DNA of 64,000 nt from Alphaproteobacteria bacterium. Lineage in GTDB: Bacteria; Pseudomonadota; Alphaproteobacteria; CAAHEQ01; UBA3637. The notes under the pieces are model-generated. The model saw only the letters and a program-made list of their open reading frames with translations, was not told the origin of the DNA and did not search any database. Position 1 is the stretch's first letter. Each line of letters begins with the position of its first letter. Below, piece after piece: positions 6,768 through 63,906 of the stretch. The stretch covers positions 70,837 through 134,836 of the forward strand of contig JAFTTR010000002.1 of NCBI GenBank assembly GCA_017466695.1. The letters are read 5' to 3'. A program made the position numbers and the translations under genes.

Positions 6768-7492
6768 TGTCCCTCCTTATTCAAATAGGCTGAACGAAGA
6801 CCATCATATTCTTTTCGCCCATCGTGAATTTTAATCATACGGTGCGCATAATCTGCCACATCATCCTCATGTGTTACCAAAACAATTGTAATACCTGCCT
6901 GATTGAGTTTTGAAAAAAGCGCCATAATTTCATCAGAAGTTTTGGTATCTAAATTCCCAGTTGGCTCATCTGCAAAAATAATAGCAGGATTGTTCACCAA
7001 AGCTCTTGCAATGGCAACACGTTGTTGCATACCCCCTGAAATTTGAGTTGGAAGTCTATCTTCATACCCTTTCAACCCCACAATTTTAAGCATTTCGACA
7101 GCTCTTTTATACCTTTCCTTTTCACCAACACCCTGATAAATCAAGGGTAAAGAAACATTATCAGCTATTGTTCGTTTCATCAAAAGGTTAAAGTTTTGAA
7201 ATACAAACCCTATTTCATGCCCTCTGATAAAAGCAAGCTCATTGTCCGTTTTTTGAGAAACAAGCTTCCCTGTTAAATAATACGCCCCTTTTGTGGGTCG
7301 ATCCAAACAACCCAAAATATTCATCAAAGTTGACTTACCAGAGCCAGAATGACCCATAATAGCTACAAACTCCCCTTTTTCAATTTTAAAAGAAACATTC
7401 TTGAGAACGGACTGGCTCATTCCACCAGCCATAAAATATGTCTTACATAAATCTTTCACCTCAATAACGGTTTCTTTTTGTTGTTTTGCCAT
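6764..7492 (-). CDS. ABC transporter ATP-binding protein (MacB/LolD-like ATPase)
   Basis: Walker [10 protein letters not shown]; signature [15 protein letters not shown]; Walker [13 protein letters not shown]. Confidence 0.9.
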
Positions 7493-8604
7493 TATTTTCG
7501 CCCACCTTTTTGAATGTATTCTGTAATGAATTGGTCGCCTTCTTTAAGTCCATCAACAACTTCAACATAAGAGGCATCCATAATTCCACGAGTAAAGACA
7601 AGAGGCACCACTTTGCCATCAATCAGTTGGTAGATAACCCCTTGATTAGCCTCTAAATCAAGTGTCACTTTGGGAACATATTTTCTAACCAATGCATTGG
7701 GTTTATATTGCAAAGCAGCCGTAGGAATACGAAGAACGCCTTCTTTATCATGAATAACAATTTGAACAAAAGCTGTCATCCCTGGCAATAACTTACGTGA
7801 AGAATTATCCACCTCAATCACAACCGTATACATCACAACATTTGACTCTTCGGTTGGGGATAATCTAATTTGTTTAACAACCCCGGAAAAAGCATCATTT
7901 GGGTAAGCATCCACCGTGAAAGAAGCTTTCATCCCAGATTGAATTGCTCCAATATCTGCTTCAGCAATACTCGCTTCAATTTGCATTTTGGACAAATCCT
8001 CAGCAATGGTAAATAACGTTGGTGTTTGAAGAGAGGCTGCTACTGTTTGACCTTGTTCCACTTCTTTGGAAATCACCGTTCCTGAAACAGGCGAAGTAAT
8101 TTTAGCATAGCCAAAATTACGTTCAGCCTTATTAAAATCAGCCGTTGCTGTTAAAACATCAGCTTCAGCTATGGCTAAATTAACCTCTGCTTCTTCCAAA
8201 GAGGCTTTGGCAATCAATTTATCTTTATAAAGTTTTTCATATCTTTTAAAGTTTAAATCAGCCACCTTCTTTTTCGCATAAGCTAAATCTAATCTAGCTT
8301 TGGCATCATTTTTATTCTCCGTTAAAACAGCCGTATCCAGCTCAGCTAAAAGTTGCCCTTCTTTGACTTCATCATTATAATCAACCAATACTCTTTCAAC
8401 AATTCCAGAAACTTGCGTTCCCACACTGACCGTATTAACTGGTTGAATTTTACCTGATGCCGTTACCTCTTCAACAATTCGACCCTTTTCAACTTTCATA
8501 ATTTCAAAATCTTGCTTTGTAAGGGCTTTTTCTTTTCCCCCTGAAAAAGCATATATCCCACCCCCAATTAATAGCACAATAATTAAAACGACCCACTTTT
8601 TCAT
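7492..8604 (-). CDS. Periplasmic adaptor (membrane fusion protein), HlyD/MacA family
   Basis: N-terminal anchor, coiled-coil segment, beta-barrel/lipoyl-like regions; overlaps neighbouring genes by 1 nt (operon). Confidence 0.8.
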   Translation of the reverse strand: MKKWVVLIIVLLIGGGIYAFSGGKEKALTKQDFEIMKVEKGRIVEEVTASGKIQPVNTVSVGTQVSGIVERVLVDYNDEVKEGQLLAELDTAVLTENKNDAKARLDLAYAKKKVADLNFKRYEKLYKDKLIAKASLEEAEVNLAIAEADVLTATADFNKAERNFGYAKITSPVSGTVISKEVEQGQTVAASLQTPTLFTIAEDLSKMQIEASIAEADIGAIQSGMKASFTVDAYPNDAFSGVVKQIRLSPTEESNVVMYTVVIEVDNSSRKLLPGMTAFVQIVIHDKEGVLRIPTAALQYKPNALVRKYVPKVTLDLEANQGVIYQLIDGKVVPLVFTRGIMDASYVEVVDGLKEGDQFITEYIQKGGRK

Positions 8605-9947
8605 TAAAACCTCCCTATGGCACGATACAAACTTGCCTTACTTGTTAACACGGCATAATAAGCTACAATAACTTCCTTTCTCGCATTAGATAGCTGTGAA
8701 CCGGCTGTCAATAAATTCAAAATATCCCCTTTACCAACTTGATATGAAGCAAAAGCCACTCGTTCATTTTCAACAGCACTTTCCAGCGCTTTTTTGCTAA
8801 TTTCATAAGAAGAAACAGCCGTTTTATAATTGTGATAAGAAGTCCAAACCTCATTTTTAACCATTTCAATCATTTCTTCTTTTTGTAAAAGAGCTTTTTC
8901 CTTTTGCGCCTCAGCCTCTTTCACATTATATGTTACTGAAAAGCCAGAAAAAAGAGGAACAGAAACATTCAACCCAATACTTGAGGAATAATCAAAATTA
9001 TTCCTTTCTTTAAAATCATCCCCATAACCGGAAGATGCTGTTAAAGAAATGGTTGGCATATGCATTGATTTCAAGGCTTTTACATTTTCAGTAGCTGCTA
9101 AAATATCTTTGTCAGCTTTTTGAATTTCAGGTCTGAGCCCTATCGCTGTTTCAATCATTTTATCAACACTCATCCCTTGCATGGAAAGTTTTGTCAAATC
9201 CCTATCATTTTTAGGTTTTAATAGGTTAAAATCAGTCGTTGGGGAAACATTTAATAAAACAGCTAATTTACCTTGATTTGTTTTAACCTGATTTTCAGCT
9301 TGAACAACATCTAATCTTGATTCTTCATAACTTGTTTTAGCAAGCAATTTATCACTTAAAGAAACAAGACCTAACTCATAACGTCTTGAAGATTCCTCAT
9401 ACGATTTTTTAAAACTTGCTTCACTTGTTTTGGCGCTTTTTAAAACCTCTTGGGCACTGAGTAAATCAAAATAAGCCTTATTAATTTCTAAAAAAGTATC
9501 TTTGATTTGAGCATTGTATTCAAACCCTGAAGATAACATATAATTTTCAGCCCTCTTCACACGAGCAGAACGGCCCCCAAAATCATAGAGCATCCACGAA
9601 AGAGCCGCATTCAAACGATAAGGATTAGCGGCATTCGAATTAAAATCTTCCACCTTATTATATGTATCTTCCATTGCACCTTTTAAAGTAACACTTGGCA
9701 AATACTCTGCTTTAGAGGCACCCAAAGAAGCCTCTTTTGCCTTCACTTCCATATACCCTCTATTTAAAGTCGGATTATTACAAAGCCCAATTTCTAACAA
9801 TTCAGGCAATCCCATAGGGCCTTTTAAAATATCTTTATCCACACAATTTTCTGGTGCTTTTTGTTCAAAAACATGAAAGGGATCCATGGCCTGCGCCACC
9901 CCTGAAAAACAAATTATACCCATACCTAATAAGAAAATTTTGCGCAT
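8604..9947 (-). CDS. Outer membrane efflux protein, TolC family
   Basis: Signal peptide MRKIFLLGMGIICFSGVAQA; two repeated OEP-like halves; first gene of the operon. Confidence 0.8.
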   Translation of the reverse strand: MRKIFLLGMGIICFSGVAQAMDPFHVFEQKAPENCVDKDILKGPMGLPELLEIGLCNNPTLNRGYMEVKAKEASLGASKAEYLPSVTLKGAMEDTYNKVEDFNSNAANPYRLNAALSWMLYDFGGRSARVKRAENYMLSSGFEYNAQIKDTFLEINKAYFDLLSAQEVLKSAKTSEASFKKSYEESSRRYELGLVSLSDKLLAKTSYEESRLDVVQAENQVKTNQGKLAVLLNVSPTTDFNLLKPKNDRDLTKLSMQGMSVDKMIETAIGLRPEIQKADKDILAATENVKALKSMHMPTISLTASSGYGDDFKERNNFDYSSSIGLNVSVPLFSGFSVTYNVKEAEAQKEKALLQKEEMIEMVKNEVWTSYHNYKTAVSSYEISKKALESAVENERVAFASYQVGKGDILNLLTAGSQLSNARKEVIVAYYAVLTSKASLYRAIGRF

Positions 9948-13873: not shown

Positions 13874-14989
13874 ATGAAAACAACATTATTTCTTTTTTTA
13901 ATATTAGCGACAACTTCTTTTACAGCAAGAGCAACTTTGCAGGATTTAGCAAGCGAATATTCACCCATTCAACCGATTAAAGAAATTGCTCAAAAAACAA
14001 TTGAGTTATCTGGTGCACTTTCTGGAACACTTGAAAAAAGCCCTACAGCCATTCTGCAAGAACAGCTAAATGAGGCTTTTGATGATGATAAAATGCTGGC
14101 TTTTTATTTATCCACGCCAAAAGAAAAACGCCAATATCTTTTTCCAATGATACATATAGCGCCTTTTATTTCACATAAAATTAAATCCCATCCAGAAATT
14201 TTGTTTTATAAAAATAAACAACCAACCATTATTGCCCCTAGGTTGCAAGAATTTGCAAAAAAACATTTGAACGACCTTTCCCCTTACTATTACAATTATT
14301 TAGATCCTGAGTTTTGGCAAAAAACACCTCAAGAAGAACTTTGCAATCCTGAAATGGTACAACAAGAAAGAGCCCCAGCTTTGAAAGAAAAAGGACCAGA
14401 TTATGTCTATCCAACAATTAGGGAAATCTTTAATCTCGCTGGAAAAGATGCAAAAGATTATTTTAAAACCAGTCTCACAAGTGATGATTTAGCAAAATTT
14501 TCATCTGTTATTGCTGACTTAGAATCTTTCACCCCTGTTCATTTTGAAAAAGATAACCTGATTGTTTTTGTTTCCAAATACTCAAAGAATCAACCCTTTA
14601 GGTATATCGGTGATCCTTTCTTAATGTATCTTTTTACACTTGAAAAATTAGATGAAAGAGAAAATTTTGACGCCTTTGTTCAAAAACATGGGTTCAAAGA
14701 TGGGCAAGATTTTGCCTTAAAAGCTGATAAGATTGTTAAGGCTTATAATGCCTTGACGCTTCATTTGTTAATTGCCTCTTACATCACCCAACATAAAGAA
14801 GGCAAATCCATTAAACAACCTACCAGAGAGGACTTTGGGGCACCAGATATTCACGTAATGGATATGTATACCAGAATGAATTCATCCACACCTGGAGATG
14901 TTTATTTTGTGAAAAAATATAAAGATCAAATTAAACCAATTTTAAAAACAAACTTTATCCAATATGGTATTATGTTTTATATTGACTAA
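13874..14989 (+). CDS. Hypothetical secreted protein (371 aa)
   Basis: Signal peptide MKTTLFLFLILATTSFTARA; no recognisable domain; very AT-rich. Confidence 0.45.
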   Translation: MKTTLFLFLILATTSFTARATLQDLASEYSPIQPIKEIAQKTIELSGALSGTLEKSPTAILQEQLNEAFDDDKMLAFYLSTPKEKRQYLFPMIHIAPFISHKIKSHPEILFYKNKQPTIIAPRLQEFAKKHLNDLSPYYYNYLDPEFWQKTPQEELCNPEMVQQERAPALKEKGPDYVYPTIREIFNLAGKDAKDYFKTSLTSDDLAKFSSVIADLESFTPVHFEKDNLIVFVSKYSKNQPFRYIGDPFLMYLFTLEKLDERENFDAFVQKHGFKDGQDFALKADKIVKAYNALTLHLLIASYITQHKEGKSIKQPTREDFGAPDIHVMDMYTRMNSSTPGDVYFVKKYKDQIKPILKTNFIQYGIMFYID

Positions 14990-15037: not shown

Positions 15038-15664
15038 ATGGCTTGGACTGCAGAAAAGATTAAACAACTTAAAAAATTATGGCTCAAAGGTAAAAGTACA
15101 ATTGAAATTGGAAAAGAACTTGGCATTTCAAAAAATGCTGTGGTTGGAAAAGTTCACCGGTTAGAACTTGCCGCTCGTCCTTCTCCAATTAAACGGGTAC
15201 AAAAACCTACTACAGCTACAAAACAAAAGGTTGTTAAAAAAGAAATTAAACCTAAAAAAATGACTTTAATGGATTTAAAACTCACTTCTTGCAGATGGCC
15301 AATTGGTGACCCTAAGGATGAAGATTTTCACTTTTGTGGGGCCGATACAGTCACGGGAAAACCTTATTGCGCTGAACACTGCAAAGTTGCCTATACTTCA
15401 TTAAAAGAACTCACTCTTCAAAATGCAAAAGCAAAAAAAGAAAAAGAAGAACAAGAATTGTTAGAAAAGCAAGCTGATGCTCTTTTAAAAGAAGCTGATG
15501 AAAAAGAATCTAAAAAAACAAAAGCAACTTCAAAGAAAAAACTTTCATTAGAAGAACAACAATCTTTATGGGAACAACAAGCTGATGCGTTGCTCGCTGC
15601 TGCTGACGAAGCTGAAGCACCAAAAAAAAGAGCTAGCTCGAAGAAAAAAGAAACAGCAATCTAA
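15038..15664 (+). CDS. gcrA: Cell-cycle transcriptional regulator GcrA
   Basis: N-terminus MAWTAEKIKQLKKLWLKGKSTIEIGKELGISKNAVVGKVHRL and the C-terminal CRWPIGDP...CAEHC motif are characteristic of GcrA. Confidence 0.88.
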   Translation: MAWTAEKIKQLKKLWLKGKSTIEIGKELGISKNAVVGKVHRLELAARPSPIKRVQKPTTATKQKVVKKEIKPKKMTLMDLKLTSCRWPIGDPKDEDFHFCGADTVTGKPYCAEHCKVAYTSLKELTLQNAKAKKEKEEQELLEKQADALLKEADEKESKKTKATSKKKLSLEEQQSLWEQQADALLAAADEAEAPKKRASSKKKETAI

Positions 15665-21021: not shown

Positions 21022-21714
21022 TTATGCCGTATATAACCCCTCTTTAATCAACCCCTCTTCGACACGAATTTGCTTATCCATCTGCAATGCTAAATCAGGG
21101 TTATGTGTTGCAATCAATGCCGATAATTTTGTTTCTTTCACTAAATTTAAAAGCGTTTGAAACACACCACTTGCCGTACTAGGGTCCAAATTTCCAGTTG
21201 GCTCATCTGCTAATAAAATAGCTGGGTTGTTTGCCAATGCTCTTGCAATGGCAACACGTTGTTGCTCACCCCCTGAAAGTTGCCCTGAGCGATGTTTTAA
21301 TCGGTGTTTTAATCCCACTAACTCCAGCAATTCTTCAGCTCTTTTTCTAGCAAGTTTTGGCTTTTTCCCTTCAATTAGTTGGGGAAGCATCACATTTTCA
21401 AGCGCATTAAAATCTGGCAATAACAAATGGGATTGATAAACAAAACCAATGGCCTTTCGTCTCAAAAGAGTGCGTTCTTTATCTAAGGCATGAGATACAT
21501 CAACGCCATTTACAAAAATTTCACCACCCGTAGGCGTATCCAACAGCCCTGCAATATGAAGGAGTGTTGATTTTCCAGAACCAGAAGGACCAACAAGAGC
21601 CACAATTTCCCCTTTTTGAAGTGTAAAGTTAATATCTTTTAAAACCTCAAGTTTCGTTTCTTTATCGCCATAAAAACGGCTCACATGTTTTAATTCTAAA
21701 CAAGGATTATTCAT
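21022..21714 (-). CDS. lolD: Lipoprotein-releasing system ATP-binding protein
   Basis: [18 protein letters not shown]; [32 protein letters not shown]; paired and overlapping with the LolC/E permease gene. Confidence 0.85.
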
Positions 21715-22951
21715 ATCTTAATGCCTCCACAGGGTCAGTTTTGCTTGCTTTATAAGAAGGATAAAGTGTTGCAAGTAAGGATAAAGCTAAACTCATCACA
21801 ACAACAAGTGTCACTTCTGTCATATCCACTTTTGCTGGTAGGTGGGAAAGGAAATAAATTTCAGCCGAAAAAAGCTCTCTTCCTGATAATCCTTCTAAAA
21901 ACGTTTTTATCGCATCAATATTTTCACAAAACAACAAACCAAGAGCAAAACCTGCGAATGTTCCAACAACACCAACGGTTAATCCAGACATTAAGAAAAT
22001 CCGTTGAATAGCACCACGGCTCATCCCCATTGTACGTAAAACTGCAATATCTTTTGTCTTATCTTGCACAAGCATAATCAGCCCTGAAATCATATTAAAA
22101 GCAGCCACAATAATAATGAGCGTTAAAATTAAAAACATAACATTTCGCTCAACTTCAATGGCATTAAAAAAGGCTTGATTTGTATATCTCCAATCATGGA
22201 TTGTAGCATCTCTTCCAATTTTTGAAAATGCATTTTCTGCAATTTTTTCATAATCGGCGCCTTTGTTTGTAAATACTTCAAGATGAGAAACTTTATCCCC
22301 TGTCATGAAGAATTTTTTCGCCTCGTCAAGGGGCATGAAAAGAAAATTGCCGTCATATTCACTCATACCACTATCAAAAGTTCCTAAAACCGTATATGCC
22401 TTCATTTTAGGAATTGTGCCAAATGCTGTTATATTTCCTTTAGGTGAAACCAATGATACTTGATCTCCAGCTCTTACCCCTAACCTTCTGGCCAAACGAT
22501 AACCTAAAATAATTTGGCTATCTAAAAACTCATTGATATCTATGCCTTTATATTTTCCACCTAATAAAGGCCTTTTTTTAAAATCCTCAAGACTCATCCC
22601 TCTAACCATAACCCCAGCTGAGGCCATATCAGAGGAAAGCATAACCTGCCCATCCACCACAGGTACAACATGGGTAATATCTTTAATGGATTGCATTGTT
22701 TTAGCCTTTTCTTCGCCATCAGACAAATATGGACCATAAGAGGGATAAACTCCTAATTGCCCATTAATACCAAGAACACGACTTAAAAGCTCTTCTTTAA
22801 ACCCATTCATCACACTCATTACAATAATAAGCGTTGCAACACCTAACATAATCCCTAAAAATGAAAACCCTGCAATAACAGAGACAAAGCCGGTTCTTTT
22901 TCTAGACTTTAAGTAGCGAAAAGATAACATTCTTTCTGTTTTTGAAAACAT
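21707..22951 (-). CDS. lolC: Lipoprotein-releasing system permease LolC/LolE (FtsX family)
   Basis: 414 aa; N-terminal TM, periplasmic domain, C-terminal FtsX TM bundle; upstream of lolD with an 8-nt overlap. Confidence 0.8.
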   Translation of the reverse strand: MFSKTERMLSFRYLKSRKRTGFVSVIAGFSFLGIMLGVATLIIVMSVMNGFKEELLSRVLGINGQLGVYPSYGPYLSDGEEKAKTMQSIKDITHVVPVVDGQVMLSSDMASAGVMVRGMSLEDFKKRPLLGGKYKGIDINEFLDSQIILGYRLARRLGVRAGDQVSLVSPKGNITAFGTIPKMKAYTVLGTFDSGMSEYDGNFLFMPLDEAKKFFMTGDKVSHLEVFTNKGADYEKIAENAFSKIGRDATIHDWRYTNQAFFNAIEVERNVMFLILTLIIIVAAFNMISGLIMLVQDKTKDIAVLRTMGMSRGAIQRIFLMSGLTVGVVGTFAGFALGLLFCENIDAIKTFLEGLSGRELFSAEIYFLSHLPAKVDMTEVTLVVVMSLALSLLATLYPSYKASKTDPVEALRYE

Positions 22952-39777: not shown

Positions 39778-40473
39778 TTATGAAAAAAGTGGCCCAGCAA
39801 TCTGCATTGTTTTATGCATTAAAAGGGTGAAATAGGCTTCAACCCCTGCCCAGCCTTTGATGGAATAACAAAACACCATACCATATTTTAAAAAGAGAAT
39901 CCCTGGTAAAAAACAGATAGTAAAAATATATCCTGCAACCCTAAAATCTGTTTGCTTAGGGTGAATGGACAAACAACTCACAATGAAGTTATACCCTAAG
40001 AAAATCCCCAACATAGAGAGGTAAAATTCAGGCACTTTCCCAGCAAAGGCAACATAAAGGGGCGTCAAAAGAACCAAAACAAACCAAAATGTTGGGAAAA
40101 AATAAGGCGCAAGAGCGATCATCCAATTCCCCTTCCCTTCAAAAGAAAAAGACCCCCCTACATCTTGATTTACATCTAACCCTCTTGGTTTATGAAATGT
40201 CAAAACGGCAAAAAGCATATGCGTTAATTCATGTTCCATAATCGCAAAAAAGGACCCTGCCAATGCCGGAATAAACAAAAATAACACACAGGTTGCTAAA
40301 AAAGGCAAAAAGAACTGTAAAATCACATCCATATTCGTCAATTTTTCAATCACGTAAATATCTGCATACAATGCTGGAACGGCTATTAACACCATCAAAA
40401 TACCAATCGGCCATTTTAATTTATCAATTATCCAATTTAAACAATGATTTATTTTTTTCATCTTCCCCACCAT
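39778..40473 (-). CDS. Polytopic membrane protein with HExxH motif (putative zinc metallopeptidase, DUF3267-like)
   Basis: MEHELTHMLFAVLTFHKP within a membrane-embedded context; about 6 hydrophobic segments. Confidence 0.4.
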   Translation of the reverse strand: MVGKMKKINHCLNWIIDKLKWPIGILMVLIAVPALYADIYVIEKLTNMDVILQFFLPFLATCVLFLFIPALAGSFFAIMEHELTHMLFAVLTFHKPRGLDVNQDVGGSFSFEGKGNWMIALAPYFFPTFWFVLVLLTPLYVAFAGKVPEFYLSMLGIFLGYNFIVSCLSIHPKQTDFRVAGYIFTICFLPGILFLKYGMVFCYSIKGWAGVEAYFTLLMHKTMQIAGPLFS

Positions 40474-47500: not shown

Positions 47501-48181
47501 TTAGGCTCCTTCATAACTTTCATTTGTTATTTTGACAGCCTTTTGAACTTTAACCTTTTCAGCCAAACGCTTTAAATCTGGTGAGCGTTCTTGTAAATTT
47601 TTTTCATTTGGGAACATTTGTTTCATTGCTTTTAAAAACCAGTCATAGGCTTTTTGATATTCTTCATTAGCCTCATACAAAAAAGCAACTTTCATCTGAG
47701 CAGGAGCATATGAGCTTTTCGCCGCTTTTAAATAATAATACATTGCCTTTTCATCATCTTTTTGAATCCACTTATTTTCCTCATAAATTTCTGCCAATCG
47801 CATAGCTGATTCAATATGCCCCTTTTCAGCTGCTTTTTTATAAAAAGCAACAGCTTTTTGTGGATTTACAGACGTATATTCCCCTTTTTCATAAGCTTGT
47901 GCAATGATGTATTGGCTATCCCTATCGCCATAATCGGCCAATCTTGCATGAAATGCCATATCCCAATACCCCTCATCTTTTACCCCCACAAGATCAGAGT
48001 ACTGTTCTTGATAATCTTTTAAAAAGCGTCTTTTTTCCAACTGTTTTTTGTTATGCGCTTGCAAGGCTTGAATTTCAGCCTCTTCCACCTTTGTCAATGA
48101 GCCTGCTTGTACAGGAGTTTTTCCCCCACTTATAAGAAAAAAACAAGCTAAGATTAAATAAAAAAGTTTCTTTTTCATCAT
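47501..48181 (-). CDS. Secreted Sel1-repeat (TPR-like) protein
   Basis: Signal peptide MMKKKLFYLILACFFLISGGKTPVQA; Sel1-like repeats (AVAFYKKAAEKGHIESAMRLAEIYE; AMYYYLKAAKSSYAPAQMKVAFLYE). Confidence 0.6.
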   Translation of the reverse strand: MMKKKLFYLILACFFLISGGKTPVQAGSLTKVEEAEIQALQAHNKKQLEKRRFLKDYQEQYSDLVGVKDEGYWDMAFHARLADYGDRDSQYIIAQAYEKGEYTSVNPQKAVAFYKKAAEKGHIESAMRLAEIYEENKWIQKDDEKAMYYYLKAAKSSYAPAQMKVAFLYEANEEYQKAYDWFLKAMKQMFPNEKNLQERSPDLKRLAEKVKVQKAVKITNESYEGA

Positions 48182-49607: not shown

Positions 49608-51392
49608 TTATGATGCCTTTGAAGTGGCATATAAAATTCCTTGGGCCATTCCATCCCCTTCTTTTCGAAGCTGTATCTCTTCTTTTGTTTGAATTGAAAA
49701 CCCTGTTTTCAACAGCAAATGAGTAACAAAAGGTTCTTTATATACAAACCGTGCATTTTCAAGCAAGGCTTCGTCTAATTGACTATCCCCAAGTTCAATG
49801 GTGAACAAAAAAGTTCCCTCTTTTGTTAGGTGTTCATACACTCTTTTTAAAAACAGTTCCATATTTGAAAAATAACCGGTTACATCACTTGCAACAATTA
49901 AATCATAACAATCATCATCTGCTTCCAAAAAAGAGAGAATATCTTGATGAACAAGACGTGTATAAGCTTCTTTTTCCCCAGCTATAAGCAACATGTTTTT
50001 TGAAATATCCACCCCTGTTAAAGAGTTCGCCTTTTCTAAATAAGAAACCAAATTACCAGTCCCACAGCCAAGGTCTAAAACGTTTTCAAAAGTCTTTTGG
50101 TGCAAAAATTCTTCCATTTTTTTAAGAACCCCGGCCTCCAGTTTTTGCATTTTCGCATCATACGATAAAGCAAAGGCATCATACAAAACTTCAGCATATT
50201 TTTTGGAAAGTTCAGGCGTTACTTTTTCACCTGTAAGTGAGGCATGTGTATAAACAGCAACGACACTCTCTGGGAAATTTTTAACCCACCCTTTAGCAAA
50301 AGAAAGGGCTTGTTTTTTATCTTTTTTATCCCCTTTTGCCAAAAAAGTTAATGTATTTTGAATACGAAAATTTAAATCTGGAATCTCTTTATTTTGACTC
50401 AACAAATTAAAATAAAGGCCAGCTGCTTCTGAATAATCCCCAGTTTCTTCCAAAATAATAGCTAAATTATAAAGCGAAGAAGTATGGTTTGGCGCTAAAA
50501 TAATCACACTTCTTAAATGCTCTAAAGCTTCGGTCAAGCGATTTTCTTCATGAAGCACAAGCGCCAAATTATGATGGGCGTTTAAAAAGTCTTTATCCAC
50601 TCCTAATGCTCTTTTATAAGAATCTTCAGCTTTTTTAAAGTTTTTTTCTTTTAAATAAATGTTCCCAAGGTTAAAATAAGCATCTGCTAAATAAGCATTT
50701 TTTGAAAGAGCTGTTTCATAAGAAATCTTCGCACTTTGCATCAATCCTTCTGCTTCTTCAATCAAGCCCTTTTCATTATAAAATGAGGCAACTTCCTCCA
50801 TTTTTAGTGCATTTTCAATCGCTTGTTTGGCAGGTTTTAATTTCCCTGTCAAGCGATAGGCCATTGCTAATTGGTAATAAAGCTCGGCACTTTGGCCTTG
50901 ATTGAGACCCTCTTGCAATAAGTCTAAAGATTCTTGAAGCGCTCCTTGACGCCTTAAAATAAGAGCTTTTCCGATATAGGCTGTGAGCACAGCGCTGTTT
51001 AAAAAGAGACTTTTATCAAAAGCACTTTTGGCAAAGTCTGGTTGTCCTTTTTGAAGATAAATAAATCCAATTTCTGCCAAAACAAAAGCATCCTCTTTAT
51101 AAGCCTCATAAAAGGAAAGCGCTTCATCCAAACGACCTTGTTTTTCAAGGATAAAACCTAAACTCAGTTTATATTGCTTGTTATCAGGATAGAGTTGAAC
51201 AGCTTGATATAAAAGTTTTTCAGCCGGCTCATAAGCCCCCATTTTTGAAGCAATCAACCCCAATAAATAAAGCCCATCTCCTTGAGCTGGGGCAATGGTC
51301 AAAACCTGTCTTGCCAAGTCTTCAGCTGAATCATAGTCTTTTTGATTGTAAGCCCAAAAGGCCTGATCTAACATCTCATCAAGCGTTGACAT
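49608..51392 (-). CDS. TPR-repeat protein fused to C-terminal class I SAM-dependent methyltransferase domain
   Basis: Multiple TPR units (AYFNLGNIYLKEKNFKKAEDSYKRAL, etc.); methyltransferase motif I VLDLGCGTGNL in the C-terminal ~200 aa. Confidence 0.7.
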   Translation of the reverse strand: MSTLDEMLDQAFWAYNQKDYDSAEDLARQVLTIAPAQGDGLYLLGLIASKMGAYEPAEKLLYQAVQLYPDNKQYKLSLGFILEKQGRLDEALSFYEAYKEDAFVLAEIGFIYLQKGQPDFAKSAFDKSLFLNSAVLTAYIGKALILRRQGALQESLDLLQEGLNQGQSAELYYQLAMAYRLTGKLKPAKQAIENALKMEEVASFYNEKGLIEEAEGLMQSAKISYETALSKNAYLADAYFNLGNIYLKEKNFKKAEDSYKRALGVDKDFLNAHHNLALVLHEENRLTEALEHLRSVIILAPNHTSSLYNLAIILEETGDYSEAAGLYFNLLSQNKEIPDLNFRIQNTLTFLAKGDKKDKKQALSFAKGWVKNFPESVVAVYTHASLTGEKVTPELSKKYAEVLYDAFALSYDAKMQKLEAGVLKKMEEFLHQKTFENVLDLGCGTGNLVSYLEKANSLTGVDISKNMLLIAGEKEAYTRLVHQDILSFLEADDDCYDLIVASDVTGYFSNMELFLKRVYEHLTKEGTFLFTIELGDSQLDEALLENARFVYKEPFVTHLLLKTGFSIQTKEEIQLRKEGDGMAQGILYATSKAS

Positions 51393-54578: not shown

Positions 54579-55082
54579 TTACACCACCCCTGTTTTTTGA
54601 TTAATAAAAGCTGATAAAGCAGCGCAAAAAGGATACATCACTCCCACGAATATAAAACCTGTCAAAAAACTTGAAAAAGGAATTGTCCTATCCAAAAAAA
54701 CACGTAATAATAATAAGTTAAGTACTAAAACACCCAACAATGTTACTAAAAAAACAGCCCATTGTTTTTGAAAAGATAACTGTATGACCACACGTCGGTT
54801 AAACCCAGCTAAAAAAGCACCCATTAACAAAGCAAATGATTGAAAACCCAAAGGATAGGCCATAAAAAAATCAGAAGCAATCCCAAGCAAAAACACAAAA
54901 ATCAAATTCAATTTTTGAGGATTAAAAATGCTGAAATAAAAAACAAAACAAAATAAAAGAGAAACAAGAGGATAAGGCAATCCAAATTGAAACAAAAAGG
55001 CACTTTCCAAAAAAGAAAACAGCATCAACACCAAAAAAGGCATCAGCAAAGCCACATATTTTTGAGCCAAAACCTTTTGCAT
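54579..55082 (-). CDS. mreD: Rod shape-determining protein MreD
   Basis: 167-aa polytopic membrane protein directly after mreC. Confidence 0.7.
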   Translation of the reverse strand: MQKVLAQKYVALLMPFLVLMLFSFLESAFLFQFGLPYPLVSLLFCFVFYFSIFNPQKLNLIFVFLLGIASDFFMAYPLGFQSFALLMGAFLAGFNRRVVIQLSFQKQWAVFLVTLLGVLVLNLLLLRVFLDRTIPFSSFLTGFIFVGVMYPFCAALSAFINQKTGVV

Positions 55083-57235: not shown

Positions 57236-60200
57236 TTAGAAATGATATTTCACGTTAGCAACACCCGTGTGGTTGGTGTAATCGCCTTTGAAAAGACCTT
57301 CATACTCCAATCCAATTTCGGTACGCTTGTCAATTTCAAGACCCATTTTAACGCCAATTTCAACACCAAAACGATCCATTTCTTCCGTTTCATAGGTATA
57401 GCTTGCACCATTTAACAGAACAACGTTTGTATCCATTGTTGGCGTGATGAAATCATATGTTAAAGCAGCTCTGAGCTCTGGATACATCCACATAGAAGGT
57501 GATAATCTGTACCCAAGTGTGTATTTGGCTCCCAAAACACCCGTTAAAGTATGGCTATCTGTTCCTTCAACAGTTTGACCCAATGTATCTGTGTATTCTT
57601 TTTGTTTAGCATAGACATATCTAAACCCAGCTTCTGGTGAAATCACACCACTAACCCAATTGCCAAAAACAACTGGACCAAGCTTGTACCCGGCAATGGC
57701 TTGCGCTGCGATAATGTTCACGTCAAATTCTGATTCAACCTTCTTAGAAAAGACTGATCTTTCTTCCTTAACCTTTGAGGAACCGTACAACGCAAATGCA
57801 TTGGCATAAAAACGGCTGGGGCTGTATTCAGCATAAACGGCACCAGCTGTGGTTTCAATTTCAGTATCACGGCTAGAAGTACTACCATCACCTGTTGTAT
57901 AGGCAATCATTGCCCCAACTTTCAAGGTTTTTGTTAATTTCGCTTCAATACCAGCTGCCACACCCATGGTGTCCATATCCCACTTGTTTTTGCCAGAATA
58001 TTCTGATTGTCCATAAATGCCGTCCACCCAAACATTAGATGTTTGACGAGGGGCTTTATAATGAACTTTACCATTATAAACATAGTGTGAACGTTCAATA
58101 GAGGAATAAAAACGTTTGCTAATCGCATTCGATATTTGACGTGTTACCTCATTCGCATGTGCTGTGATTAAGGTTGAGGTGTCAGGTGTAATCTGATTCA
58201 TAGCGTCTTGATAATCTTGAGAATCAAGACCTTTTTCTTGAGCTAAAGCATGCAACTGTGTACGAACAAATTGAGCCTCTTCATTTTCTTCAATCACACC
58301 ACCATCAATCCAAGCATCAGAGGCTTCTTTGTTATAATTATCACAATTGCCAGAAGGACAATGTGGATTTGTTGGTTTTACAACAGGGTTGCTCGTACTC
58401 CCACTGCCGTTTTGGTTTGAAGAAGAGCCAGACCCCGTCCCTCTTTCAACAATATAAACACCCTTTTCACCTTCTTTTTCAGTGATGGTATATAAATAGT
58501 TTTCAGCAATATTTGAAAAAGCCCCACTAATACCTGTTGATGAAGTCGTCGTTCCTTCACCTGTAGTTGATGGCGTATTGGCATCTGGTTCCACTTTAAA
58601 GAGTTGATATTCTTTTGATTCCCCTTTTTGAAGTTCATCAATATCCACAATCACTTGCAAGGAAGTACCTTGTCCCGAAATGTTAATATTGCTTCCTGCA
58701 ACAACTTGACCATTCACATTTTCACCCACGTGTGCAATCACTTTTGAGTTATTGTTCACGTTGAAAATATCTGTATAAATTGTGTTCAACCCCAAATCAA
58801 CAATTGAATCTGTGATTGAAATAGTCCCAATTGTTTTATCCGTCGTTTGTTTGGTATTAATCCCCACTAAATGCAGATTACTTCTGTTAATATTGAGGGT
58901 CCCAGCGTTATAAATATCACCTGACTGGTCCAAAAGCGTATGCGCATTAGAAGGATATGGCGTGTTCGTATATGGTTCATATTCGATTGCCATGGTATCT
59001 TCAACCCCTTGAATGTTCACCGTTCCAAGGTTATAAATATTGCTTCCCAACTCGGCTATGTTATTTTTAAAAGCAACATTAGAGCCCGAAATTGTCATCA
59101 ATGCACCTGCGTCATTATAAATGGCACCACCCAATTGTGCTTTGTTGCCAGTAAGGGTTGTCTTGCCCCCTAATTCCATAACACCTTTGTTAAAGATAGC
59201 ACCACCCCCTGTGGTTGCTTCATTGTTTTTAAAGGTTGTGGTTCCATAAAAATTCACACGCCCTGTGTCATTGGCAAAAACCTCATTATAAACAGCCCCA
59301 CCATAACCCTTAGCCTTTTCACTCAATGCTTTGTTGCCTTCAAAAGTAACGTCTGTACCTGTGCCAAAAGTCGTGTTCCCTTCAGCGTTATAAAGCGCAC
59401 CCCCACGGCCTTGAATAAAGTGAATATTATTTTGAAGCAATTCTTCATTTGAGTAGTCATTTTCTGCTATCATATTTTTAACAGAGTTACCTTTAAATTG
59501 GATGGTTGAATTCCCTTCAAAATTCGTTGTACCATAGTTTACAAGAGCACCACCCACAGCATAAGAGGAAGCCACAACAGAGTTGCCCTCAAATGAAGCA
59601 TCATTTTTAAATGTTGCAACAGCAGTGGTACCCAGCACTTGCATAGCACCCCCTTCCCCATAAGAAAGGCCTGGCGTAAGAGTACCATCAGTTTCTTTTA
59701 TATTCGCTTGAGCATCAATACTATTCCCAGCAAAAACAGCACCACCATTAAAGTTAATTATCCCATCTGAAAGATAAACCCCAGCACCATTACCAGAAGA
59801 CTGAGCATCATAACTTTTAACTTTGTTGTTCAAAAAATAAGTCGTACCATTGAATGTGGCTGAAGATTCTCTTCCCAAGTTATAAAGACCGGCACCTGCT
59901 ACAACCAATCCCTCCTCCTCATCTTCAAGAATAGCCTCATTGGCACTAAATGTTGTTATTCCATCAAAAACAATGTGACCTTTCATATTGGCAATACCAC
60001 CACCATAGGCATAAAAATCCTTTGTTGTGGCAATATTTTGAGCAAATGAAGCATTCCCTTTAAAATGAATAGTTGGAATAACTGGCTCTGTTGATCCCAG
60101 CTGTCCTGTTACATTGTAATTATCAACACCAGCATTATAAATAGCGCCCCCACGACTTGACGTTCCATTTTCAGCTCTATTTCCAACGAATGTTACTGAT

Positions 60201-61132
60201 TTTGAAAAGACGATATCTTTTTCATTATAAATTGCCCCACCATCACTTAACGACCAAGCATCATACGTTGTTTCACCTTTTTTAGAATCATAATAACGCC
60301 CTGTATGTATCCATTTTTGTGTAACAATATTATTTGAAAAAGAGCTTTCTCCTTCAAAATTAGCCAAGCCCTTATTAAAAAGAGCACCACCTTGCGCAGC
60401 AGCATTTGCGAAGTGGTTCGTTTCACCACCCGTTTTTGTTGTCCCTGCAATTACAATATTAGAATCAAATGCAGCCCTTGTATCTGATGACACCGTCAAT
60501 ACACCAGAGTTATAAACTGCTGCACCTTGAGAAAAAGTATCAAGGGCGTGTTCTGCCTCTTTCCAATGAGTTGCCGAATCAATTTTATTATTTTTAAAAG
60601 AAATACTTGTCCCTGTAAAAGAAGTATTCGCCCCATTATGCAAAGCACCACCATAAAATGCGGTTACATAATTTTCTTTAGGAGCCTCCCAAATAGTTCC
60701 ACCAGCATAACCTTCTAACGAAAGTATAAGTTCACCGTTTTCATCTACAATAACCCACGGATCTGTTGCTAACTCAGTCGTACCCCTTTGAATAAAGTGT
60801 GCATTTTGAAACGCCACTTCACCCATAAAATCCAAATCAACACTATTTGTTTTAAGCCATGTTTTATGATGTTTACCTTTTTTGATAAATTCCTGTCCTG
60901 GGTTAGGAATACTAAAACCAGAAGTAGAACTTTCAGCTCCTTCTGCACCCAACTCATGCATCCAAGTCCCGTCTAAAAGAGCTGTTCGAAGATCGGTACC
61001 ATCATTAATACCAATATTATTGGCTAAAACTTCACTTGGAAAACACACGGAACTTAATAAAAGGCTGGCAAATGCAAACCGTACAACAACCCCACTCAAT
61101 CCTAAACAAACGTTAGAACGATTATCCCCCAT
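57236..61132 (-). CDS. Large autotransporter (type Va) outer-membrane protein with Pmp-type GGA[ILV]/FxxN repeats in the passenger
   Basis: Signal peptide; repeated GGAIYN / GGALYN / GGAVYNE / GGAIFNKG and FKGN / FEGN / FSNN / FKNN motifs; Gly/Ser/Thr-rich linker; C-terminal ~280-aa beta-barrel ending ...NVKYHF. Confidence 0.8.
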   Translation of the reverse strand: MGDNRSNVCLGLSGVVVRFAFASLLLSSVCFPSEVLANNIGINDGTDLRTALLDGTWMHELGAEGAESSTSGFSIPNPGQEFIKKGKHHKTWLKTNSVDLDFMGEVAFQNAHFIQRGTTELATDPWVIVDENGELILSLEGYAGGTIWEAPKENYVTAFYGGALHNGANTSFTGTSISFKNNKIDSATHWKEAEHALDTFSQGAAVYNSGVLTVSSDTRAAFDSNIVIAGTTKTGGETNHFANAAAQGGALFNKGLANFEGESSFSNNIVTQKWIHTGRYYDSKKGETTYDAWSLSDGGAIYNEKDIVFSKSVTFVGNRAENGTSSRGGAIYNAGVDNYNVTGQLGSTEPVIPTIHFKGNASFAQNIATTKDFYAYGGGIANMKGHIVFDGITTFSANEAILEDEEEGLVVAGAGLYNLGRESSATFNGTTYFLNNKVKSYDAQSSGNGAGVYLSDGIINFNGGAVFAGNSIDAQANIKETDGTLTPGLSYGEGGAMQVLGTTAVATFKNDASFEGNSVVASSYAVGGALVNYGTTNFEGNSTIQFKGNSVKNMIAENDYSNEELLQNNIHFIQGRGGALYNAEGNTTFGTGTDVTFEGNKALSEKAKGYGGAVYNEVFANDTGRVNFYGTTTFKNNEATTGGGAIFNKGVMELGGKTTLTGNKAQLGGAIYNDAGALMTISGSNVAFKNNIAELGSNIYNLGTVNIQGVEDTMAIEYEPYTNTPYPSNAHTLLDQSGDIYNAGTLNINRSNLHLVGINTKQTTDKTIGTISITDSIVDLGLNTIYTDIFNVNNNSKVIAHVGENVNGQVVAGSNINISGQGTSLQVIVDIDELQKGESKEYQLFKVEPDANTPSTTGEGTTTSSTGISGAFSNIAENYLYTITEKEGEKGVYIVERGTGSGSSSNQNGSGSTSNPVVKPTNPHCPSGNCDNYNKEASDAWIDGGVIEENEEAQFVRTQLHALAQEKGLDSQDYQDAMNQITPDTSTLITAHANEVTRQISNAISKRFYSSIERSHYVYNGKVHYKAPRQTSNVWVDGIYGQSEYSGKNKWDMDTMGVAAGIEAKLTKTLKVGAMIAYTTGDGSTSSRDTEIETTAGAVYAEYSPSRFYANAFALYGSSKVKEERSVFSKKVESEFDVNIIAAQAIAGYKLGPVVFGNWVSGVISPEAGFRYVYAKQKEYTDTLGQTVEGTDSHTLTGVLGAKYTLGYRLSPSMWMYPELRAALTYDFITPTMDTNVVLLNGASYTYETEEMDRFGVEIGVKMGLEIDKRTEIGLEYEGLFKGDYTNHTGVANVKYHF

Positions 61133-61378
61133 AAATAGCCTCCTACATGCATATTTATCATAAAGTATACTTTTATACTTTTAGTATTATGAAAAGATAA
61201 AATAAATTGCAAGCGCTTTTTTTAATTTTTTTTATCTATTGAATCAAAAAAAAATCCTTATACGTATTCAACTTAAATAACCTATTCATATTATTATATT
61301 ATTTTAAATTAAAAAAAAGTCCTTTACATCAAAAAATAAACAAGCTAACATATCAAAAACAAACAAAGGAGTTAACAA

Positions 61379-62760: not shown

Positions 62761-62895
62761 AATAAGTTTTTCTTAAGCTCTACCCTGAGTGTTTTTTTTA
62801 AGCAGTTTATTCTAAAATTTTTAGGGCAATTTTGACTTAAACAAAAACTTTAATTTCAAGGAGCAACCCATTTAAAACAAAAAAGGATTTAATAA

Positions 62896-63093
62896 ATGTT
62901 AAGACATATTCTTCTGGCTGTTCTTATTTTAATGATTGTAAAGGGTTTTATGTATTTTTTCTTGGCAGATCACATCAAATATCTGGCACAAAAAATGGCA
63001 GATATCGACCCTTTGCAATATAAAATTTTTGGGTTGCTCCTCTTTTTTATGAGTTTTATTCTTTGGGTCGGTTGGTTAAGATATATGTTTTGA
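62896..63093 (+). CDS. Small hypothetical membrane protein (65 aa, two TM)
   Basis: Hydrophobic segments ILLAVLILMIV and FGLLLFFMSFILWVGW; no homology recognised. Confidence 0.3.
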   Translation: MLRHILLAVLILMIVKGFMYFFLADHIKYLAQKMADIDPLQYKIFGLLLFFMSFILWVGWLRYMF

Positions 63094-63159: not shown

Positions 63160-63906
63160 TCACCGGAAGTTTGATCTTAAAAAATCCAATCCAACATTTA
63201 TATGTTTAATCAATCTCCCTTTTTGAATGAGTTTAAAATTTTTCATATGAGAGCTTGGTTTATCAACTTTTTCAATAGCCTGTAGCAACACACTTCTTAA
63301 AGCCTCTTTTTGAGCTAACTCCAAACGAGGGCCTGCTCCTCGCTCTTTTAACACACTCAAACATCTGGCTGCTGAAAGAATGGCTTTGGGCGAGCTTGTT
63401 TTATCAAGTATCTTCTCAAGCAACAAATCTCCAGCTGTTTTATCCTCATTGTTGCGATACCCCAGCATAACACCCTCACAAATAATGTAAGCTGCCACGT
63501 CAAAATGATTGTTTTTTATTGCCACATGAAGGGGTAGCTCTGGCATAGGCCGTGGCATATCGGAAAGAGCACCTCTCCTTGCCAAATACATCACAACGTT
63601 TAAGTGTCCATTTTTTGCAGCATGGTATAAAGGCGTTTGCCTTGAATAATTCATATCATCACGCCACTCATACTGCGTCTGATCAAAAGCTCTTAGCACG
63701 TCTACCTTCCCTGCTTCAGCTGCTTTTGAAAAAGGCGTATCCCCGGCAAAATTGGTTAACCCTGCTCTTGCATTATTTTTAAGCAAATCCTTCACCAGCT
63801 CAACATCTCCAGCTTCGGCTGCCCAATGGAGCAATGTATTTCCTTTCAAATCTTGACGATCCACATCAGCAATTCGAAATGTTCCATTCTTTTTTTCTTC
63901 TTTCAT
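63160..63906 (-). CDS. Ankyrin-repeat protein
   Basis: At least 4 ankyrin units (GNTLLHWAAEAGDVELVKDLLKNNA; DTPFSKAAEAGKVDVL; QTPLYHAAKNGHLNVVMYLARRGA; LPLHVAIKNNHFDVAAYII). Confidence 0.75.
   Translation of the reverse strand: MKEEKKNGTFRIADVDRQDLKGNTLLHWAAEAGDVELVKDLLKNNARAGLTNFAGDTPFSKAAEAGKVDVLRAFDQTQYEWRDDMNYSRQTPLYHAAKNGHLNVVMYLARRGALSDMPRPMPELPLHVAIKNNHFDVAAYIICEGVMLGYRNNEDKTAGDLLLEKILDKTSSPKAILSAARCLSVLKERGAGPRLELAQKEALRSVLLQAIEKVDKPSSHMKNFKLIQKGRLIKHINVGLDFLRSNFR

Follow-up and report, generated by a model that had tools for sequence, protein, structure and literature searches.

In Chlamydia, the beta-helical autotransporters of the Pmp type are key adhesins as well as vaccine targets. 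Each chlamydial genome carries 9–21 Pmp paralogues, and it is because of this number and the obligate intracellular lifestyle that Pmps are hard to study there. Their passengers are built on GGA/FxxN motifs, which are buried rung elements (PMC10715098). Adhesion by Pmp21 requires these motifs, and motif-dependent adhesion to host cells has been described for Pmp6, Pmp20 and Pmp21 (PMC2997323). The underlying family, PF02415 (Chlam_PMP), extends well beyond Chlamydia. Less than one third of its proteins are chlamydial (PMC11166332), and it is found in more than 100 non-chlamydial species, where the motifs have the same structural role (PMC10715098). Among solved structures, the Pmp-type rungs are reported to lack a close counterpart (PMC10715098), and four prediction methods agree on beta-solenoid models for PF02415 (PMC11795689).

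Here, we describe a protein with such repeats from an uncultured alphaproteobacterium that is represented by metagenome assemblies alone. It is encoded in a 64-kb window (the whole stretch of DNA that was analysed, 64,000 nucleotides), which also encodes GcrA, an alphaproteobacterial cell-cycle regulator. The best explanation of the data as a whole, to which we give a probability of roughly 0.75, is a type Va autotransporter with a Pmp-type passenger that is likely an adhesin and is subject to allele exchange.

The autotransporter locus

The gene and the putative signals for its expression are as follows:

57236..61132, minus strand: autotransporter ORF, 1298 aa, with an ATG start and the C-terminal end ...VKYHF
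61183..61212, minus strand: promoter-like pair TTGCAA ... ATAATACT, invariant columns 165–171 and 190–196 of alignment A5 (five lineages)
61139..61144, minus strand: ribosome-binding site AGGAGG, 6 nt 5´ of the ATG and the same in the window and in L001–L006
57178..57219, minus strand: intrinsic terminator, 14-bp stem, 6-nt loop and T8, 17 nt past the stop codon

The exact protein is available as MBQ8250414.1, which already carries the name autotransporter at NCBI. As the original prediction had stated, the ORF is the largest in the window, followed by Mfd with 1145 aa, and lies between the mre operon and folA-thyA, with mreB-mreC-mreD-mrdA-rodA downstream and folA-thyA upstream in divergent orientation. 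The order of a divergent folA, the autotransporter gene and mreBCD-mrdA is kept in 5/5 orthologue lineages, and the GC content of the gene is that of the surrounding DNA. A tblastn search of the 64-kb window revealed no further copy, and the closest non-orthologous relatives (P0006, P0013, P0024 and P0025) are encoded on contigs of other assemblies in unrelated gene contexts. A protein-pattern scan of JGI metagenome contigs gave zero confirmed relatives, and a DNA pattern for the barrel C-terminus retrieved one 1.1-kb contig (L012) and no further alleles.

The promoter-like pair is the sole stretch of the folA/autotransporter intergenic region that is kept in the most distant orthologous locus. 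A promoter-like match from a sequence scan (61193..61164) overlaps the pair, which may act as a promoter. Exceptional conservation of the upstream intergenic region as a whole was considered and rejected; the measured identities of 96%, 85% and 84% track flank phylogeny, so that the region is constrained rather than anomalous. At the other end of the gene, the terminator that had been ascribed to it is borne out by folding. The hairpin has a free energy of -19.1 kcal/mol (z = -6.1), and 0/200 shuffles fold as well. An Rfam search in and around the gene returned nothing, its sub-threshold matches reflecting the terminator hairpin alone.

Phase variation driven by homopolymeric or repeat tracts had also been suggested and finds no basis in the sequence. 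The CDS has no homopolymer of the kind proposed (at least 8 A/T or at least 6 G/C) and no 2–7-nt tandem repeat of at least four copies, and the upstream T9, A8 and T8 tracts are of equal length across four near-identical strains. We therefore reject a phase-variable surface protein that is switched by slipped strands, as there is no length-varying homopolymer or short tandem repeat to support it.

Architecture of the protein

The domain architecture makes it almost certain that the protein is a classical (type Va) autotransporter. The PF03797, PF02415, TIGR01414 and TIGR01376 profiles all score above their curated cut-offs, in agreement with the original call. The protein is divided as follows:

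61022..61132, minus strand: signal peptide, residues 1–37, with an n-region to R18, the hydrophobic core FAFASLLLSSVCF and predicted cleavage between VLA and NN
59033..60652, minus strand: Pmp-type repeat region, residues 161–700, with 13 paired GGA-like/FxxN units as predicted beta-helix rungs
58553..59032, minus strand: conserved passenger base, residues 701–860, modelled as an irregular beta-helix (pLDDT 84–92)
58328..58552, minus strand: G/S/T-rich spacers, a short beta unit and a Cys-x4-Cys loop, residues 861–935
58034..58327, minus strand: alpha-helical linker, residues 936–1033, with four predicted helices (pLDDT 70–89)
57239..58033, minus strand: 12-strand outer-membrane beta-barrel translocator, residues 1034–1298, PF03797, ending in KYHF

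From sequence and hydropathy, a signal peptide is predicted in which a basic n-region precedes 13 residues of hydrophobic core and a c-region with VLA before NN, between which it is probably cut. The hydropathy reaches 1.7–2.2 over residues 14–22, and the signal peptide is conserved in orthologues. A lipoprotein anchored through Cys30 was rejected, because the preceding SSV fits a lipobox poorly and this residue is not conserved in P0047. Model confidence is low over the ~50 N-terminal residues of the mature protein.

The repeats were evaluated against 2000 residue shuffles of the protein. GGA[ILVM] occurs 11 times (0.28 expected, shuffle maximum 4), the strict form GGA[ILVM][YFQVH]N nine times (0.01 expected) and FxxN 18 times (4.7 expected, shuffle maximum 14), with 16 of the 18 in the passenger. 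The nine examples quoted in the original prediction are all present, at residues 248, 298, 328, 377, 527, 577, 611, 643 and 668. When the near variants GAAV, GGGI, GAGL and GAGV are included, there are 13 GGA-type motifs, each of them paired with an FxxN (one LxxN) 13–19 residues on, between residues 161 and 691. Four pairs conform to the core pattern GGA[ILV]-x(14,18)-FxxN and seven (0.016 expected) to the relaxed-gap pattern GGA[ILV]-x(12,23)-FxxN, both as defined in PMC11166332; relaxing the motif brings the count to 13.

Profile searches, named in the original prediction as a point at which it might fail, place the repeats as Pmp-type, with 62.4 bits for PF02415 (cut-off 20.6) and 17 bits for TIGR01376 (cut-off 15). 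Their description as a chlamydial hallmark did not hold to the same extent. The GGA/FxxN repeat also occurs outside Chlamydia, and the Pmp middle domain, PF07548, has no match in the window protein (E up to 1) or in seven orthologues (E up to 10) and is absent from 17/17 relatives of the corresponding region. With PF07548 absent, the protein is by its sequence Pmp-like and not a chlamydial Pmp proper.

In place of the middle domain, the repeats are followed by a base that matches no Pfam family. It has 76–89% amino-acid identity among the four lineages compared below and is a candidate autochaperone. Next comes the G/S/T-rich linker that had been noted after the repeats; residues 861–935 are 53% G+S+T+N and indel-rich, and the spacers are modelled at pLDDT <50. 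This part includes a near-invariant Cys-x4-Cys loop (C925 and C930), in which both Cys are invariant in alignment A1 and show conservation of at least 90% in alignment A6. The linker helices span model residues 56–64, 72–88, 93–102 and 107–129. The longest and last, at residues ~986–1008 (pLDDT 78–89), is a candidate pore-filling helix, and the predicted helices directly before the barrel extend to residue ~1014. Among 1.84 billion cluster representatives, only 17 have the 334-residue module of base, Cys-loop and helical linker (residues 700–1033), and its rarity is a new result.

The C-terminal translocator barrel, whose absence had been named as decisive against the prediction, is detected by PF03797 (108 bits, cut-off 26, E 6.6e-31, residues 1034–1278), by TIGR01414 (77 bits, cut-off 16, residues 924–1298) and by the predicted fold. 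It has the anticipated size and terminal Phe, with 12 long strands in the model and the C-terminus ...VKYHF. Foldseek matches the model to the solved type Va translocators EstA, NalP, EspP, Hbp, BrkA and AIDA-I at E 1e-14 to 1e-10 and TM up to 0.86. Amino-acid identity in the barrel is 94–97% among the four lineages, and the terminal F1298, the C-terminal aromatic of the beta-signal for BAM, is invariant in orthologues.

Segment histories of the gene

The four lineages (the window, L001, L002 and L006) were compared by counting informative sites for the three tree topologies. One segment stands out:

59438..61021, minus strand: distal hypervariable passenger half, residues 38–565, comprising the N-terminal cap and the first ~nine Pmp-type rungs

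The mreBC flank has informative sites in the ratio 270:3:0, which gives the lineage tree, and the barrel follows the same tree at 41:8:3. The signal peptide segment likewise follows flank phylogeny, with 91% nucleotide identity to L001. Residues 38–565 give 29:106:30 and favour a tree that groups the window with L002 and L001 with L006, whereas residues 701–1033 give 12:18:42 and a tree unlike that of both the flanks and residues 38–565. The chi-square p for heterogeneity among segments is ~4e-95. Between sister lineages the distal passenger has ~45% amino-acid identity where the flanks are 95–97% identical, and for the window and L001 the figures are 44% in residues 161–565 and 95% in the flanks. 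In the same pair, passenger pS is 0.56–0.67, threefold the flank value (0.19). Residues 38–565 have many indels and a dN/dS of 0.3–0.6, as opposed to 0.03–0.09 in the barrel. This mosaic phylogeny is a new result.

The sequences compared are all metagenome contigs or MAGs, and the mosaic might have been created during assembly, if contigs passed from one co-occurring strain to another within conserved stretches. Possible switch points are the barrel and the 5´ end, both of which are conserved, and the L001 allele (P0003) comes from one contig, which begins 235 nt 5´ of the gene. On the other hand, separate samples have yielded at least eight contigs with the window allele and its flanks, another MAG has it at 99% identity, and the L002-type and L006-type proteins are each present in at least two contigs or assemblies; identical full-length proteins from independent assemblies argue against chimeric contigs. 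Three segment histories in four lineages would also need several independent in-frame chimeras, and the conserved stretches are only 85–90% identical between lineages, which leaves few exact k-mer bridges. We consider an assembly artefact very unlikely, and the gene is very probably a mosaic formed by real recombination. The passenger would then evolve as lineages exchange allele segments of it through homologous recombination, the conserved 5´ end and the barrel serving as homology arms. Such a mosaic would be expected of a surface protein under diversifying or frequency-dependent selection. The dN/dS ratio is <1 in every segment of the gene and gives no evidence of positive selection.

Proposed function and relation to known systems

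Established type Va biology suggests how the protein would be secreted. The Sec signal peptide (residues 1–37) would direct it to the periplasm, and BAM would insert the 12-strand barrel (residues 1034–1298, terminal Phe) into the outer membrane. The helical linker would fill the barrel pore and the passenger would exit C-terminus first. The conserved base (residues 701–860) would fold first and template the stacking of ~13 Pmp-type rungs, in which GGA[ILV] and FxxN would be buried structural elements. The passenger is expected to be exposed at the cell surface, where homology and fold point to a role as an adhesin or invasin. By analogy with chlamydial Pmps, we lean towards an adhesin, most likely for a host, mucus or partner-cell ligand. 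The protein has no RGD motif.

The beta-helix fold is common to lyases, glycosidases and phage tailspikes, and the fold alone is thus no proof of adhesion. An enzymatic passenger (polysaccharide lyase, glycosidase or epimerase) is conceivable in principle, and so is an effector that is secreted and cleaved. Searches of Pfam and NCBIfam argue against this, as all catalytic families, among them Beta_helix, Pectate_lyase and Peptidase_S6 and S8, were unmatched at E up to 1–10 (E up to 1 for S6/S8, the mark of SPATE or protease autotransporters). The passenger model is a right-handed beta-helix whose closest structures are the secreted adhesins EtpA, UpaB, Hap and Vag8, and its repeats form a regular Pmp-type solenoid without an inserted globular domain. 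Taken with these observations, an enzyme or effector is very improbable. Self-association of the passenger in autoaggregation or biofilm, as in Ag43 and AIDA, may replace binding to a host ligand. Ag43 is the best Foldseek PDB match of the passenger, although a weak one (E 1e-3), and a lone long beta-helical rod without accessory domain suits the Ag43/AIDA class. Homo- and hetero-oligomers of chlamydial Pmps (PMC8326573) are in line with the same idea. We nevertheless regard self-association as unlikely, and retain an adhesin for a foreign ligand as the working model.

One speculative and rather doubtful extension is that, in a probably host-associated clade of uncultured alphaproteobacteria, attachment to a host or partner is determined mainly by this one Pmp-like autotransporter of the core genome. 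Its passenger would consist of exchangeable cassettes that are kept across species (trans-species polymorphism) and swapped via the 5´ end and the barrel, and the base/Cys-loop/helical-bundle module, restricted to this lineage, would be a new autochaperone or stalk that replaces the Pmp middle domain. If so, the gene would provide a tractable non-chlamydial single-gene model of Pmp-type beta-helix ligand binding and diversification. In these poorly known alphaproteobacteria, the locus probably has a role in attachment or as an antigen. The protein is of an ordinary type and reveals no new kind of system.

Compared to the chlamydial Pmps (for example PmpA-I of C. trachomatis and Pmp21 of C. pneumoniae), the window protein has the same type Va organization with a right-handed beta-helix passenger, both match PF02415 and PF03797, and the rungs of both are based on paired GGA[ILV]/FxxN tetrapeptides. 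The distance from GGA to FxxN is 13–19 residues here and 14–18 in 75% of chlamydial pairs (PMC11166332). In contrast, the gap from FxxN to the next GGA, typically 4–5 residues in Chlamydia (PMC11166332), is 5 residues in 1/14 cases and 4 between LTGN and GGAI, and otherwise 9–35. Where the Pmps have PF07548, the window protein has a different, rare base/linker module. The Pmps form a large paralogous family in each genome of Chlamydiaceae, whereas the alphaproteobacterial gene is single-copy in the 64-kb window, occupies a fixed syntenic site and belongs to no detected cluster of paralogues.

Many other non-chlamydial PF02415 proteins, including autotransporters from Pseudomonadota metagenome assemblies, have the same Chlam_PMP and Autotransporter architecture (for example P0013, P0014, P0019, P0025 and P0031), but are only 25–30% identical to the window protein outside the barrel, and the module at residues 700–1033 is common to just the 17 cluster representatives. 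Solved structures are available for beta-helical adhesins of classical autotransporters and of two-partner secretion (UpaB, Hap, Vag8, pertactin, EtpA and Ag43). A PDB sequence search found zero relatives of the protein, with no detectable similarity to these adhesins, and the Foldseek similarity of the passenger is marginal (E >=1e-3).

Intragenic recombination is a property that the gene shares with chlamydial pmpE, pmpF and pmpH (PMC3126793). The window gene combines a Pmp repeat architecture with a syntenic setting, as a single copy in the 64-kb window, and a different base module in an unrelated lineage. Together with the clear evidence for exchange of the exposed distal half, this setting and module make it a useful comparative case, which helps to tell the structural role of the GGA/FxxN rungs from the functional role of the variable surface.

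The gene and its locus

The autotransporter gene occupies 57236..61132 on the minus strand and encodes 1298 aa, from an ATG start to a C-terminus of ...VKYHF; as the original prediction had it, no ORF in the window is larger. The ribosome-binding site AGGAGG precedes the start by 6 nt, and the separate terminator it had been credited with is a strong intrinsic one (hairpin of -19.1 kcal/mol, z = -6.1, then T8) 3´ of the stop codon. The exact protein is present in NCBI nr (MBQ8250414.1, 'MAG: autotransporter outer membrane beta-barrel domain-containing protein [Alphaproteobacteria bacterium]').

The window is chromosomal and housekeeping in content (GcrA, PolA, DnaG, RpoD, Mfd, aminoacyl-tRNA synthetases, RodZ), and the GC content of the gene is in line with its surroundings. 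Its placement between the mre operon and folA-thyA holds by Pfam, with MreB, MreC, PBP2 and RodA downstream and, divergently upstream, DHFR and thymidylate synthase. The exception is the 167-aa ORF at the mreD position (54579-55082, minus strand), which has no Pfam match in the window (E up to 1e-5); in its orthologues the precomputed match to MreD is no more than weak, and the ORF is apparently an MreD that has diverged. Only five clusters of full-length orthologues (57–99% identity), all from metagenome assemblies, were found among 5.8 billion clusters. Because the order folA<>autotransporter>mreB-mreC-mreD-mrdA is kept in all five, the gene is a vertically placed core-locus gene and not part of an island.

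Other features of the window and of two database contigs (L003, L007)
5550-9947 (-) and 21022-22951 (-): MacB-type ABC systems
13874-14989 (+), 371 aa, and 39778-40473 (-), 231 aa: ORFs with no Pfam family (E up to 1e-8)
15038-15664 (+): GcrA cell-cycle regulator (PF07750, E 1e-35)
47501-48181 (-), 49608-51392 (-), 63160-63906 (-) and L003 1-216: eukaryote-like repeat proteins
L003 1040-1237 and L007 2230-2424 (equivalent: window ~62830-63090): small ORF 3´ of thyA

The GcrA match independently supports an alphaproteobacterial origin of the window. One MacB-type system makes up a full tripartite efflux operon (OEP/TolC-like, HlyD-type adaptor, ABC ATPase, MacB/FtsX permease) and the other a LolCDE-like permease and ATPase pair. 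The small ORF directly 3´ of thyA (64–65 aa, no Pfam match) is kept in several lineages; in window-type strains an ankyrin-repeat gene lies beyond it. The repeat proteins near the locus (ankyrin-repeat, Sel1-repeat, a TPR and SAM-methyltransferase fusion and, from the same strain just outside the window, an LRR_5 protein) hint at a host-associated lifestyle.

Repeats, predicted fold and base module

All the GGA/FxxN examples first quoted for the passenger are present, and counts exceed those obtained by shuffling the residues of the protein 2000 times.

Motif counts in the protein and in its shuffles
GGA[ILVM]: found 11, expected 0.28, shuffle maximum 4
GGA[ILVM][YFQVH]N: found 9, expected 0.01, shuffle maximum 1
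FxxN: found 18, expected 4.7, shuffle maximum 14

Including near variants there are 13 GGA-type motifs. The arrangement is organised, not scattered: within residues 161–691, 13 GGA-like motifs each have an FxxN 13–19 residues further on. Profile searches bear out both the translocator barrel (PF03797, E 6.6e-31, residues 1034–1278) and the Pmp-type repeats (PF02415, 62.4 bits, cut-off 20.6), and NCBIfam agrees (TIGR01414 and TIGR01376).

The structure was predicted as two pieces. That of residues 880–1298 (pLDDT 78.8) has disordered G/S/T spacers, four helices and 12 long beta-strands, and Foldseek matches it to the solved translocators EstA, NalP, EspP, Hbp, BrkA and AIDA-I (E 1e-14 to 1e-10, TM <=0.86). 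The passenger model (residues 38–935; pLDDT 78.8, pTM 0.83) consists of short strands almost throughout, with pLDDT mostly 85–98 in the repeat region. It gives only marginal Foldseek matches to solved beta-helical passengers, in agreement with the lack of a close solved counterpart of Pmp-type rungs (PMC10715098). AF2 is over-confident on beta-solenoids, but PF02415 is reported to be unaffected, four prediction methods agreeing (PMC11795689).

The beta base within residues 700–1033 is irregular and conserved; the same stretch also holds G/S/T spacers, an invariant Cys-x4-Cys loop and a helical region of ~80 residues, and matches no Pfam family. When 1.84 billion cluster representatives were scanned exhaustively with phmmer, only 17 proteins with this lineage-restricted module came up. 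In the alignment of 18 members (these relatives and the query fragment), 16 have the Autotransporter barrel, 14 have Chlam_PMP repeats and none has PF07548. One related protein, P0006 (2208 aa), shares the base/Cys-loop/linker/barrel unit, with a barrel ~50% identical and the EYEGLFKGDYTNHTG motif identical; the Pfam Autotransporter model misses this barrel (E up to 0.01). Its Pmp-repeat region is ~1000 residues longer, and its locus (contig L008 6001-12627, assembly GCA_054288145.1) differs in context, with a PALP enzyme gene on one side and pheST on the other.

Mosaic evolution of the passenger

The main new result is that the gene has evolved as a mosaic. Parsimony-informative sites were counted by segment for four lineages, the window and the contigs L001, L002 and L006, under the groupings T1 (window,L001 / L002,L006), T2 (window,L002 / L001,L006) and T3 (window,L006 / L001,L002).

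Informative sites by segment
mreB-mreC flank: T1 270, T2 3, T3 0; favours T1
Passenger, residues 38-565: T1 29, T2 106, T3 30; favours T2
Passenger, residues 701-1033: T1 12, T2 18, T3 42; favours T3
Barrel, residues 1034-1298: T1 41, T2 8, T3 3; favours T1

The signal peptide and upstream 190 nt also follow T1, and the heterogeneity among segments has p ~4e-95. Identity in the mreB-mreC flank is 95% for window/L001, 97% for L002/L006 and 82% between pairs. Amino-acid identity over residues 161–565 is 70% for window/L002 and 44% and 46% for the sister pairs window/L001 and L002/L006; over residues 701–1033 the closest pair is L001/L002. Synonymous divergence between window and L001 rises from 0.19 in the flanks to 0.56–0.67 in the passenger, which points to imported alleles and not merely to amino-acid replacement at a higher rate. 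In every segment dN/dS stays below 1, with its highest values in the distal passenger (0.3–0.6) and its lowest in the barrel (0.03–0.09). Chimeric assembly could mimic such a pattern, and the L001 allele is known from one contig; identical full-length proteins nevertheless recur in independent assemblies, making an artefact unlikely.

The suggestion that homopolymeric or repeat tracts drive phase variation is not upheld. Long homopolymers and short tandem repeats are absent from the coding region, and the promoter-region T9, A8 and T8 tracts have the same lengths in four near-identical strains. The locus varies through allelic exchange and not by switching on and off.

The folA<>autotransporter intergenic region (61133-61378) contains T9, A8 and A7 tracts and a tandem AAAGTATA x2 at 61166-61183. 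Over the ~190 nt next to the autotransporter start, identity is 96% with L001 and 84–85% with L002 and L006, a conservation at the level of the coding flanks even though synonymous sites there differ at pS ~0.55. A TTGCAA...ATAATACT pair is the sole part kept in the locus of the 57% orthologue. The region has no Rfam match and probably serves both genes as a divergent promoter or as a regulatory element.

Function and relation to chlamydial Pmps

From established type Va biology, the protein would be exported by Sec, its barrel inserted by BAM and its passenger extruded C-to-N, folding on the conserved base. We infer that the passenger is an adhesin, since Pmp adhesion depends on the GGA/FxxN motifs (PMC2997323), the predicted passenger fold is nearest known adhesins, and the evolution of the distal passenger resembles that of an exposed surface. 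Over Ag43-like self-association or an enzymatic beta-helix, neither of which is favoured, we prefer this adhesin role. The reading as a Pmp-repeat autotransporter is confirmed as an observation and supported as an interpretation.

Though unstudied, the protein can be recognised as belonging to a known class, and automatic annotation already gives it the right name. Some interest comes from its recombining distal passenger and rare base module, but neither would be unexpected in a bacterial surface protein. PF02415 is not Chlamydia-specific (PMC11166332, PMC10715098), and many proteins from Pseudomonadota metagenomes also combine Chlam_PMP with Autotransporter. There is no paralogue within the 64-kb window, and database candidates all come from other assemblies.

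As a classification, Pmp-like type Va autotransporter suits the protein best. Its GGA-to-FxxN spacing fits that of chlamydial Pmps (14–18 residues in 75% of pairs; PMC11166332), whereas its FxxN-to-next-GGA gaps are mostly 9–35 residues against 4–5 in Chlamydia, and the Pmp middle domain PF07548 is matched by no orthologue (E up to 10). As in C. trachomatis pmpE, pmpF and pmpH, where recombination inside the genes is documented (PMC3126793), recombination has occurred within the gene.
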